Source of the DNA: an uncultured Verrucomicrobiae bacterium
GTDB taxonomy: Bacteria > Verrucomicrobiota > Verrucomicrobiia > Limisphaerales > UBA11358
Reading direction: 5' to 3'
NCBI GenBank assembly: GCA_963711945.1
Contig: CAVQGB010000013.1
Location: 3,893 to 67,892 of the forward strand
DNA length: 64,000 nucleotides
This document shows, piece by piece, positions 14,762 through 25,398 of the stretch; within the stretch, counting starts at the first letter, position 1, and each line of letters opens with the position of its first letter. A program made the translations under genes and the position numbers. The notes below the pieces were generated by a model, which was not told the DNA's origin, searched no databases, and saw only the letters and a list, made by a program, of their open reading frames with translations.

Positions 14762-17700
14762 ATGAAAATCATATCATTGTCCATTTTGGCGTTGACCGTC
14801 TCTCTGGCGGAGGCGCAGACCACCACGACCGGGGCGCAGGGTGCCGTGGCATCTCCGGCGCTGCCGAACCCAACGGCCTTTTCACCAGTCTCAAGCGACG
14901 GTGGTTCCACCGTGTGGGAGCGGACGGCGTATAGCGCGGGAACCAACGGAACGGTAGTCGCCAGGAAATCTCGCTACACAGAATTAAGCAGCGGACTGAA
15001 TTACAGGCAAAACGGCCAGTGGGTAAAGTCCCAGGAACAAATCAACATCCTGCCGCAAGGCGGCGCCGAGGCCGTCCAAGGCCAGCATCAGGCGCATTTT
15101 CCCGGCGACATCTACAAAGGACAAATCGAGTTGGTGACTCCCGACAACAAGCACCTGAAAAGCCGTCCGCTGGCCATCAGTTACGACGACAGCCAAAACA
15201 CGGTGTTGATTGGCCAATTGAAACATTCGGTCGGCGTATTGGTCGCTTCCAATCGTGTGATTTATCCGGATGCCTTCTCTGGAATCAAGGCAGACATCGT
15301 TTTCGAATATCGGAAAGGCTCGTTCAGTCAATCGGTGGTTTTGAGGGAACAACCGCCCACGCCGGAGAGCCTGGGCTTGAAGGCGCAGGCGCATTTGCAA
15401 TTGTTGACAGAATTCACGGGTTCGCCAGACCCCGTCCAAAAAACAGCGGCGCGGGATGCGAAGGACAATTTGCAAGATAGCACACTATCGTTCGGAGCCG
15501 GGGGCATGACGATGGTGCAAGGCAAGGCGTTTTCAATGGGTGGCAGCGGAAGTGATTCCGCTCAAAATAATCAGAGCCGATTCACATCGGCTGCTACAGG
15601 CAGCACGCCGACGTATAAGAGCTGGATGCATTTGCAGAACCGAACGTTTCTGATCGAGGAATTGCCCTATCAACGGCTGGCCACGCAATTGCAACAACTG
15701 CCGATGACGAGCCGACTGGAAACGGCGGACACGAATTTGCTCGCGGCGAATTCGATCCTGGGCAAGGTCTCGTCCCAAAGGTTACTGCCGCCGATGCGGG
15801 AGGCGGAGACGGAAACGGGGAAAATTCTGCTGGCCAGTGCGGACTGGTCCAGGCAACCCGGCGTGGTGCTGGACTATGAGGCGGTGGATTCCAGCACCGC
15901 CGATTTCACCTTTCAAAGCGACACCACCTACTATGTCAGCAGCGAGGTCTATCTGTCCGGATTGACGACGATTGCCGGGGGAGCGGTAATAAAATACGAC
16001 ACCAACTACATCTGCGGGGTTAACATCCTGGGAACAGTCCAATGCACGACCAGCCCGGACCACCCGGCGATTCTGACCTCCGCCGACGACAACTCGGTGG
16101 GCGAGGCGATAACGACGGGCGGTCCGAACAACGGCACGGGATCATTGACGCTGTGGGTGACAGGCGATTCAGGCGTCAACCTGGCCGACCTGATGGTTTG
16201 GATTTGGGATGGCAATGGAAATTACATCGTCACCGGCCAGTCTTTATATTGGAATGGTTCCTACGAACCCATTATCTTCCCCGCCGGGGTGGGGCAAGGC
16301 TATGGGTTTGGGGCCGTCTGCGACGGTGAGTATTGGGAATCGAGCTTCTGGCCAACACTGAACACCGGCACTTTGACGCTCTCCTCCGGGAGCGCTTCCA
16401 CCTACCAAAACTTGTCTTACAGTGAGACGGGCGATGCGCTGGCGACGCAGGCGGGGGCAGCCGTGGGGTTGTCGTTGCCTTGGGGATCGTCGGTGAACGA
16501 TCTGGTCATCCGCAATCTGGGCACAGGTTTGCAGAGCGGTTATGGATTATGCTCGGTCACCAACGTGCAATTCCTCCATTGCGGCGTGGCGTTTGATTTG
16601 GAACCTTATGCGTCCCTTTACGCGGGCAATATCCTGATGTCCCAGGTGGACCTGGGCTTTTCCGGCCAGGCATTTGGGGCGACGGTCGAACACCTGACTT
16701 TTGATCAGGGGGCATGCCTTGCGGAAGATGTCAACCCGGGCTACTACAGTTTCACGCTGAACAATTCCCTGCTGACGGGCATTGCCGATTACGGAAACGT
16801 GGACCTTTCCACCAACGAGGTGGTCGCGCTTTCATCCGGTGCCGGGGTGTATGCAACCGCCGGCAATGACAATTACTATCTGGCCCCGAACAGCCCTTAT
16901 CGCAATACGGGCACGACGGGCATCGCCCCGGATTTGTGGGCCGAACTCCAGACACTGACTACCTCCGCGCCACAGGATGGCGGCTGGCCGGACAATGATG
17001 GAATGCCCGACCTCGGTTATCATTATCCGGTAAATACAAACTCCCTCTTCAATGGAGTCCCAGCGTGGTGGCTATGGAAATATTTTGGCACATACGCTTA
17101 CAGCGGCACCAATCTCGATGACACTGGCACCAACACCCTGCTCCACGATTACACCTACAACCAAATCCCCGCCGTGTTCAGTTTCACCGGGTTGGAAGTG
17201 ACCAATGTCTATGTTCATTCATCGTGGGTTCCAGTGCAATTGGACGTGACGGGGAATCCGTATTACGTCGCGATAACCGTGGACGACACCAACTTTTTGA
17301 ACGATGCGACGTGGACCCTTTATGCGGGGGCCAATATCAGCGCGTTTCTCGGCACGACGCAAGGCTGGCATGACGTGCGGGTTGGTTTGCGCGGTCATGG
17401 GGATGCCCCGAGCAGCGCCGTGTGGCAGGGAGTTCGGTTGAATCTGGATCCCACGCCGCCGTTGTTATTCATCACCAATCTAGCGACGCGCACACTGGGC
17501 GTCCCTCTGGTGCAGGTGCAAGGATATGCGGGCGAGCAATTGGCGGCGTTGACTTTTGATGTCAGCAACGCCACGGGTGTTGTTGCCGGGCAACAGGGCA
17601 TCGTGATGAACCGGGATTTTGACACGAGCGTATGGGGCTTTACGACGAATTATTTCCAGTGCTTCGACATCACGCTGGTTCCGGGAACAAACCTCGTCAG

Positions 17701-24724: not shown

Positions 24725-25398
24725 CTAATAATAATGTTATCACACGTTCAATTACAATTATTAGCTTGACGCTCTTAATGCTTATTTTCACCAACGCCGC
24801 ACGACCGAGCATAACGGGGAATGGAGCGGCTGAATATGCGCGCCGACTAACGGATTTCATTAACAATTCTGGAAGCGATTACGTTGAGTCAGAGTTTAGT
24901 AAGCTTACATGGGGGCAAGAGACGAATGGTGTGCGAGTCGCTTTGATTCCCGGCAACCCTCTATTCAATGGTCTCAATGTCACAAATGAATATATTGGAA
25001 TTGTCTTAACAAACACAACGGATACTAATCTGACTTTTGTCCTTCCTGAGATTCCTCAGCAGTTTGAATTGGCTGTATATGATGAACACGGAACACCTGT
25101 CGCAAGATCCAAACAATGGAATCAACTCGGTCAAGAGTTGCTTGGCGTAGAGAGTCCATATACTAATGATGTTAACGGCCATCAGTATGATAAAGTTAGA
25201 GCGCGTGAGTTCTTGGCCCCACATGAATTTGATCTCTTTTCGAGCATCAATCTCTTGGATTATTACAAAATTGAGAAGCCCGGAAGGTATCGTGTTGAGT
25301 ATGAGCAACGACTACAAATCGCTACTCTCCGTTCAAATAAAGTGCTGTGGGTTGGCTTCGTTTTGCCGAAGACTACTAACGTAATAGTGATGCACTAA
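24715..25398 (+). CDS. partner protein 'B-prime' (227 aa) with N-terminal hydrophobic anchor
   Basis: It overlaps the end of B by 10 nt. The N-terminus is ITIISLTLLMLIFTNAA. It is a paralog of 20112-20765. Confidence 0.65.
   Translation: MLLTNNNVITRSITIISLTLLMLIFTNAARPSITGNGAAEYARRLTDFINNSGSDYVESEFSKLTWGQETNGVRVALIPGNPLFNGLNVTNEYIGIVLTNTTDTNLTFVLPEIPQQFELAVYDEHGTPVARSKQWNQLGQELLGVESPYTNDVNGHQYDKVRAREFLAPHEFDLFSSINLLDYYKIEKPGRYRVEYEQRLQIATLRSNKVLWVGFVLPKTTNVIVMH

Follow-up and report, generated by a model that had tools for sequence, protein, structure and literature searches.

Several described bacterial systems couple a variable secreted protein to a small cognate gene. Polymorphic toxin systems include a Sec/'T2SS' (type II secretion system) class (Zhang et al. 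2012, PMC3482391), and orphan toxin-immunity modules are described for Rhs, CdiA-CT/CdiI and MafB/MafI (PMC3150448, PMC3967940). In Vibrio cholerae, sequential displacement of type VI secretion system (T6SS) effector-immunity modules leaves arrays of immunity genes (PMC5361080), and orphan immunity genes are also known from Bacteroidales (PMC12247911). Here we describe a locus from an uncultured Verrucomicrobiae bacterium, contained in a 64,000-nt stretch of contig CAVQGB010000013.1, hereafter called the window. It holds two giant genes, A and B, each followed by a small partner gene, pA and pB.

The locus resembles polymorphic toxin loci in its organisation. As in Rhs, CdiA-CT/CdiI and MafB/MafI, a long secreted protein can have very different C-terminal ends in strains that are otherwise almost identical. 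Directly downstream is a small cognate gene, 5'-truncated orphan cassettes of tip and partner are stacked 3' of the main gene, and these low-GC cassettes sit on a mobile island. N-terminal trafficking signals, a hallmark of polymorphic toxins, are present on A, on an intact giant from another locus (L014) and on many other family members.

Other features set the locus apart. The exchanged unit is large (~350 aa), the partner is exported rather than cytoplasmic, a conserved non-coding box lies 3' of partner genes, and VENN, PxxxxDPxGL and DUF1020 are all absent. In Pfam and NCBIfam searches, A and B had no TPS/haemagglutination, FHA-repeat or VENN matches, unlike contact-dependent inhibition systems, and no RHS/YD repeats, unlike Rhs. 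The sole conserved Asp/Pro motif is D800-x-P802, not the DPxGL of Rhs. The tips are not recognisable toxins: they form one homologous, beta-rich family with no match in Pfam, NCBIfam or PDB.

Taken together, the sequences indicate that the giant C-terminus and its small signal-peptide partner form a real, conserved, co-varying two-gene unit. It combines two protein families with a candidate boundary element, none of them described before.

Exchange of the tip, probably together with its partner

We retrieved 26 loci with related genes (cited by L numbers; ~16 are distinct), which contain 20 giant C-termini with downstream DNA. All 20 are followed on the same strand, at about -25 to +45 nt, by a gene for a ~160-230-aa protein with a signal sequence. 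Seventeen of these genes are significant matches to the partner-family hidden Markov model (HMM). The remaining three (in L011-13, L014 and L015) are of similar size and also carry a signal peptide and a WG...LSI motif; their hhalign similarity to the family is weak (25% probability, E 8e-4). The coupling that the original prediction had noticed in this genome is thus conserved in others. Every partner has an N-terminal signal sequence, and several carry a lipobox-like TGC. Distances between tips correlate with distances between partners (r = 0.70, Mantel p = 2e-4).

A sibling assembly captures the exchange of a tip. Gene B encodes the 898-aa public protein P0013, found on a 276,427-bp contig, and P0014, of the same length, lies on a 276,829-bp contig of a second, sibling assembly. 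P0013 and P0014 match at every position up to aa 543. In the 355 aa that follow, 320 positions differ when compared without gaps and BLASTP identity is ~25%, the C-terminal recombination pattern of polymorphic toxins. Judging from the aligned proteins, recombination left a sharp break after aa 543, where identity is lost. This break coincides with the beginning of the beta-sandwich bearing the conserved CVGQ motif, and the 5' ends of other truncated copies (L012, P0015) lie near the same point.

Partial cassettes accumulate downstream of giants, both in the window and elsewhere. The L010 array runs tip, partner, truncated giant, partner, truncated giant; that of L023 runs tip, partner and a truncated giant with the N-terminus of a transposase fused in front. 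In L024 a complete giant and its partner precede a 238-aa tip, a frameshifted partner, a further partner, a 116-aa tip remnant and a last partner. In L001 all that is left of a tip is ~45 aa, beside two partner-family genes. Along these arrays the tips shorten or decay and most partner genes remain intact. The partner protein P0003 is 100% identical in two downstream contexts (L001 and L003), with DNA identity stopping exactly at the stop codon. Because orphan arrays occur and a 355-aa swap lies behind 543 identical residues, the unit of evolution appears to be an exchangeable tip-plus-partner cassette, not a duplicated gene pair.

Many partner genes are followed immediately 3' by a conserved non-coding box of ~45 nt, always on the same strand. 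The window has two copies (Table 1), and nhmmer also found the box in at least 8 other distinct loci, among them L003/4/6, L007 (twice), L008, L010, L011-13, L014 and L015. Its core across loci is TTGAACTCGACACGCCAACCATAGCACGC..G.TGCCA, and the partner proteins that adjoin it are only ~25% identical between these loci. No conserved RNA structure was predicted (3 predicted pairs). The box is a concrete DNA element and a candidate cassette boundary: it could be a recombination anchor, a promoter or a protein-binding site. Its reading as a sigma-70 or extracytoplasmic function (ECF) promoter is speculation.

The family is large and has escaped annotation. Searched against 1.84 billion proteins, a profile of the C-terminal ~650 aa matched 4,577 cluster representatives at E≤1e-3, of which 868 reach E≤1e-30; among the best 150 matches listed, most cover the full profile. 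The N-terminal stalks are highly variable: some members comprise a signal peptide and the module alone, and many open reading frames (ORFs) begin within the immunoglobulin-like (Ig-like) region. Across 156 members the conserved motifs are TGGK, CVGQ, NGQ, RP, DxP and FPxW. The C-terminal model, of low overall confidence (pLDDT 57) but with a confident core, is a series of beta-sandwiches. Neither the C-terminal module nor the partner has a match in Pfam, NCBIfam, PHROG (E ≤ 0.01), PADLOC or PDB sequences; the original prediction, too, recognised no family for either. The N-terminal part of A has no match among PDB sequences, and beyond the Ig-like Glucodextran_B/Big_13 domains A and B are without Pfam, NCBIfam, PHROG or PADLOC matches. 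A literature search found the giant/partner system nowhere described.

A frameshifted giant and an orphan cassette

Gene A (14762-20103) encodes the full-length giant in three frame pieces. It most likely starts at the ATG at 14762, within an ORF open from 14675, so that the protein begins with the signal peptide MKIISLSILALTVSLAEA. Between residues 25 and 495 it shares 45% identity with the intact 2114-aa giant of L014. An extra base near 17951 shifts the frame and so ends piece 1; when this base is deleted, the sequence reads RFWVDDLP, in line with TFWIENVP of B. Piece 2 contains the motifs TGGK, CVGQ and NGQ...YRP. A second frameshift lies around 19565-19585, where the homology to B changes frame, and in the frame of piece 3 this homology starts at ~19570. 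Because other long ORFs in the window stay open (for example, a 1017-aa ORF at 58981-62034), A is probably a pseudogene; that the frame breaks are an assembly error is possible.

Gene B is a 5'-truncated orphan. It matches the part of A that runs from about residue 888 to the C-terminus; the ~890 aa before that, with the signal peptide, are missing. Its homology to A begins at ~21989, and its 5' end (~21986) abuts a transposase fragment. The two giants are colinear, with identity that falls in steps: from 43% in the first ~200 aa of B (A residues 894-1092, E 4e-39) it drops to ~25% in the ~560 aa that follow (E 3e-14) and is 25% in the final ~170 aa (E 2e-7). Recent gene conversion from A to B was considered and rejected; the DNA matches are two, both short and weak.

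The partner genes are intact, although A is frameshifted and B lacks a signal peptide. pA starts 8 nt past the A stop codon and pB overlaps the end of B by 10 nt, a spacing that suggests co-expression of each pair. The partners share 27% identity over 89 aa (BLASTP E 2e-7), and one family HMM matches both. The AlphaFold2 model of pA is a beta-sandwich (pLDDT 78.8, pTM 0.73), and its Kyte-Doolittle hydrophobicity peaks at the N-terminus. Signal peptides were recognised by reading the sequence and from hydrophobicity rather than with SignalP. Signal peptidase I probably cleaves pA, leaving a soluble protein. The module in the window looks partly decayed.

Much of the original prediction survives this analysis. 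The three frame pieces of A, the 217-aa signal-peptide gene 8 nt beyond it and the anchored 227-aa protein overlapping B by 10 nt are all confirmed, as are the proposed colinearity of A with B and homology of pA with pB. Other parts need revision. The prediction saw a module present twice, as two old, co-evolving, complete pairs with divergence spread over the whole length; we find one frameshifted full-length gene and one orphan cassette without a signal peptide, joined to a Y1-transposase fragment, with the stepwise fall in identity given above. Its "beta-helix" label for the middle of A was confirmed by no tool.

Low GC content is limited to the tips and partners. It is 0.44 in the A tip, 0.39 in pA, 0.45 in the B swap unit and 0.42 in pB, compared with 0.57 both in the window and in the N-terminal part of A. 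These values are consistent with horizontal exchange of the cassettes. The prediction that both modules are AT-richer than their flanks is therefore right for tips and partners and wrong for the N-terminal part of A; its placement of the modules on a mobile element agrees with the 25-nt repeats that bracket the tyrosine integrase and A-pA-B-pB (Table 1).

Readings of the pair

We tentatively favour a Sec-dependent polymorphic exoprotein on an integrative island, with an immunity-like exported partner. We lean to an effector and a protective partner because of the variable C-terminus, the coupled small gene, the stacked truncated cassettes and the persistence of the small genes. The giant starts with a signal peptide and a variable stalk, followed by Ig-like repeats and a conserved C-terminal module of ~650 aa with a fast-diverging tip. 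Its last ~350 aa are exchanged by recombination, probably as one cassette with the gene directly downstream, which encodes a ~190-aa exported beta-sandwich protein (with a lipoprotein-type signal peptide in some relatives). Superseded or truncated cassettes pile up downstream as orphans, B/pB being one. The conserved box may serve as the 3' anchor for cassette exchange, or as a promoter. In this genome the expressed copy, A, is broken by its two frameshifts and B is not exportable, with both partners intact.

Under the effector reading, the target of the tip would be the envelope or the periplasm of neighbouring cells, where the tip would probably serve as a binding or non-enzymatic effector. 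Its partner would be a cognate protective protein in the producer's periplasm, and retained orphan partners would widen protection. Periplasmic and lipoprotein immunity proteins are known for envelope-targeting effectors. As in T6SS immunity arrays, old effector ends decay and the paired small genes stay intact (L024, L001). Unlike in T6SS, the putative effector is Sec-exported and no T6SS genes were seen near these loci; the protective role of the partner is putative. The original prediction had left open an adhesin with a chaperone or anchor and an effector with a protector; partners that remain intact where tips have decayed tilt the evidence toward the latter.

Several observations weigh against an effector with an immunity-like partner. 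Foldseek against PDB matched the C-terminal model just to complement MG domains, integrins and adhesins (TM ~0.12), and the tip itself is poorly modelled (pLDDT ~50-70). Residues conserved across the 156 members are mostly Gly, Pro and aromatics, with no catalytic pattern, and the hydrophobicity profile shows no hydrophobic tip segment that would hint at a pore former. All tips are homologous members of one family, whereas classical polymorphic toxins have unrelated tip folds. Three of the 20 downstream genes are at best weakly related to the partner family. The partner-family profile search returned no partner from the 276,829-bp contig, and joint replacement of tip and partner in the sibling is inferred, not observed directly. 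Finally, the persistence of partners could partly reflect a smaller mutational target.

A bolder reading, which we regard as doubtful, sees a widespread new class of Sec-dependent polymorphic effector/recognition systems. One tip fold and one exported partner fold, both beta-sandwiches, would co-diversify as lock and key. Each exchanged cassette would be bounded 5' by a conserved coding anchor and 3' by the ~45-nt box. Y1 (REP-associated-like) transposase elements recur at cassette junctions, and the box may itself be what they target. If the favoured reading is right, the thousands of unannotated metagenomic proteins counted above would join one interpretable system: a Sec-exported, cassette-switching effector/recognition protein with a periplasmic cognate partner. 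It would occur in a lineage where antagonism between bacteria has hardly been studied by experiment. The polymorphic-toxin model would then extend to a single, non-enzymatic-looking fold that diversifies, as opposed to shuffled, unrelated toxin domains.

One alternative, possible but on the whole unlikely, is a variable surface adhesin or kin-recognition pair: the giant would be a fibre on the cell surface whose tip binds the partner, a surface-exposed lipoprotein, on sibling cells. Matched variation would set adhesion specificity, and stored cassettes would let that specificity switch. Such a pair fits about as well because the tip is one non-enzymatic-looking fold, the swap unit spans 350 aa and the partner is exported. 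Like receptor-binding domains, the tips belong to a single beta-sandwich family that diversifies around a conserved scaffold (FPxW, DxP, W847), with the rest variable; they lack an enzymatic signature and co-vary with their partners, and retained orphan partners would broaden recognition too. The matches to adhesins, integrins and MG domains point the same way, but at TM ~0.12 they are non-specific. Moreover, some partners lack a lipobox and pA is probably soluble, and the partner-only remnants of L001 and L024 are more simply explained by protection.

Polymorphic recognition and variation systems offer parallels to the locus. Myxococcus TraA/TraB and Proteus IdsD/IdsE are polymorphic self-recognition pairs, and Neisseria pilE/pilS generates antigenic variation from silent cassettes. 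The likeness lies in one fold that diversifies fast, in recombined specificity regions and in silent partial copies held in store. To our knowledge, none of the three has an exported partner gene that travels with each stored cassette, and the locus has no sequence or fold relationship to any of them.

It is improbable that the partner is a tip-specific periplasmic chaperone, export factor or anchor with no role apart from its own giant. Strict 3' adjacency, probable translational coupling and tip/partner co-variation would suit such a helper, as would export of both proteins and a beta-sandwich of a size typical for periplasmic chaperones. The partner model, however, resembles no known chaperone: Foldseek against PDB gave no PapD-like match (best E 0.015, TM < 0.4), and no usher domain was found, unlike in chaperone-usher adhesins. 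Intact partners beside decayed or absent tips, one of them 100% identical in L001 and L003, are unexpected for a dedicated helper. The searches reported here gave no match to either characterised arrangement considered in the original prediction, tail fibre with chaperone or adhesin with usher.

A prophage tail fibre or receptor-binding protein with an assembly chaperone and alternative tips, as in the G segment of phage Mu, would share the variable C-terminal tip, the co-varying small downstream gene and the integrase-bearing island, but is very nearly negligible given Sec signal peptides on giant and partner, no PHROG match at E ≤ 0.01, no other phage structural gene identified on the island, no relatives among 2.9 million viral contigs as far as the search patterns could reach, only weak DUF5067-type lipoprotein sandwiches (TM < 0.4) among Foldseek matches of the partner to viral structures, and neither an invertase nor an inverted arrangement.

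Mobile elements and neighbouring genes

An insertion sequence (IS)-like element with terminal inverted repeats separates pA from B. It carries a frameshifted Y1 (IS200-like/REP-associated) transposase gene from 20904 (Pfam PF01797, E 5e-13; NCBIfam REP_Tyr_transpos, E 2e-11), abuts box copy 1 and cuts the 3' end of that box. We know of no terminal inverted repeats in classical IS200/IS605 elements. Ends like those of this element (AAAGGGGTCAGTCC) flank a partner gene in L001, at ~2790 and ~3443. A 99-nt internal fragment from a second copy of the same transposase gene is joined directly to the 5' end of B.

Similar junctions occur elsewhere. N-terminal fragments of mobile-element genes are fused in frame to 5'-truncated giants in L008 (128-2686; Y1 transposase aa 1-150), L023 (898-4404; Y1 transposase aa 1-43) and L012 (57-1307; an integron-integrase-like N-terminus). 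The transposase breaks in the window and in L008 lie within 5 residues of the same point (...WLRV...). We infer, as a simple explanation of the fusions, that cassette junctions are favoured insertion sites for such elements and that the insertions are followed by deletions.

A 25-nt direct repeat, with 24 of 25 nt identical between copies, brackets the ~17-kb island. ARAGORN and Rfam found no tRNA or tmRNA at either copy. Inside, the integrase and a weak Rep-like ORF precede A-pA-B-pB, and the island genes scanned include no CdiB-like gene. An excisionase-like ORF was also noted by sequence reading. Paired TGGCTAAC motifs near both island ends may be integrase arm sites. Outside the left boundary, two MscS-type mechanosensitive channel genes are ordinary chromosomal context.

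Table 1. Features of the window and of related loci (window positions unless a locus is named)
Feature	Position	Strand	Evidence or remark
MscS-type channel gene	6040-7455	-	
MscS-type channel gene	8586-9503	+	
Left 25-nt direct repeat, att-like, resembles tRNA 3' end	9916-9940	+	repeat search
TGGCTAAC motif pair, left	9988-10010		
Tyrosine integrase, left island end	10105-11130	+	Pfam PF00589 Phage_integrase, E 9e-9
Excisionase-like ORF	11323-11676	-	sequence reading
Weak Rep-like ORF	12308-12826	-	
A piece 1: signal peptide, N-terminal region, Ig-like repeats	14762-17962	+	ORF, translation
A piece 2: Ig-like region, conserved C-terminal module	17955-19580	+	C-terminal HMM E 4e-157
A piece 3: variable C-terminal tip ending in FPxW	19603-20103	+	HMM E 3e-46, GC 0.44
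Partner pA, 217 aa: signal peptide, beta-sandwich	20112-20765	+	family HMM E 4e-85
Box copy 1, core TTGAAC..ACACGCCAACCATAGCACGC..TGCCA	20762-20842	+	repeat search, nhmmer E 2.5e-22
IS-like element, 30-nt terminal inverted repeats (97% complementary)	20842-21885	+	inverted-repeat search
99-nt Y1-transposase fragment	21887-21985	+	96% identical to 21317-21415
Gene B: 5'-truncated orphan giant, no signal peptide	21998-24724	+	HMM E 5e-264
Swap unit in B (P0013 aa 544-898)	23657-24721	+	P0013/P0014 comparison, GC 0.45
Partner pB, 227 aa: N-terminal signal/anchor, beta-sandwich	24715-25398	+	family HMM E 4e-51, hydrophobic N-terminus
Box copy 2	25538-25615	+	81% identical to copy 1 over 57 nt, nhmmer E 2.6e-18
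TGGCTAAC motif pair, right	26740-26763		
Right 25-nt direct repeat, right island boundary	26856-26880	+	repeat search
Box, L003	816-887		
Box, L007	1564-1604, 2398-2478		
Box, L008	3389-3473		
Box, L010	6620-6673		
Box, L011	1621-1692		
Box, L014	9819-9899		
Box, L015	2158-2218		
~207-aa protein, L001	4067-4690	-	
~207-aa protein, L016	2207-2839	+	
~207-aa protein, L024	11474-12100	+	
~207-aa protein (possible), L014	1399-2112	-	
T2SSE-type ATPase gene, L025	1046-2209		

No conserved upstream or secretion gene was found beside the full-length giants. Just upstream of the giant/partner pair in L025 is a gene for a T2SSE-type secretion ATPase, the sole hint of an outer-membrane export route. A ~207-aa protein without a signal peptide, with an FN3-like C-terminus by sequence reading, recurs near giant/partner loci, though not in the window, and may be a third component. 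One related locus holds a DUF1501/DUF1800 gene pair, which is typical of the Planctomycetes-Verrucomicrobia group.

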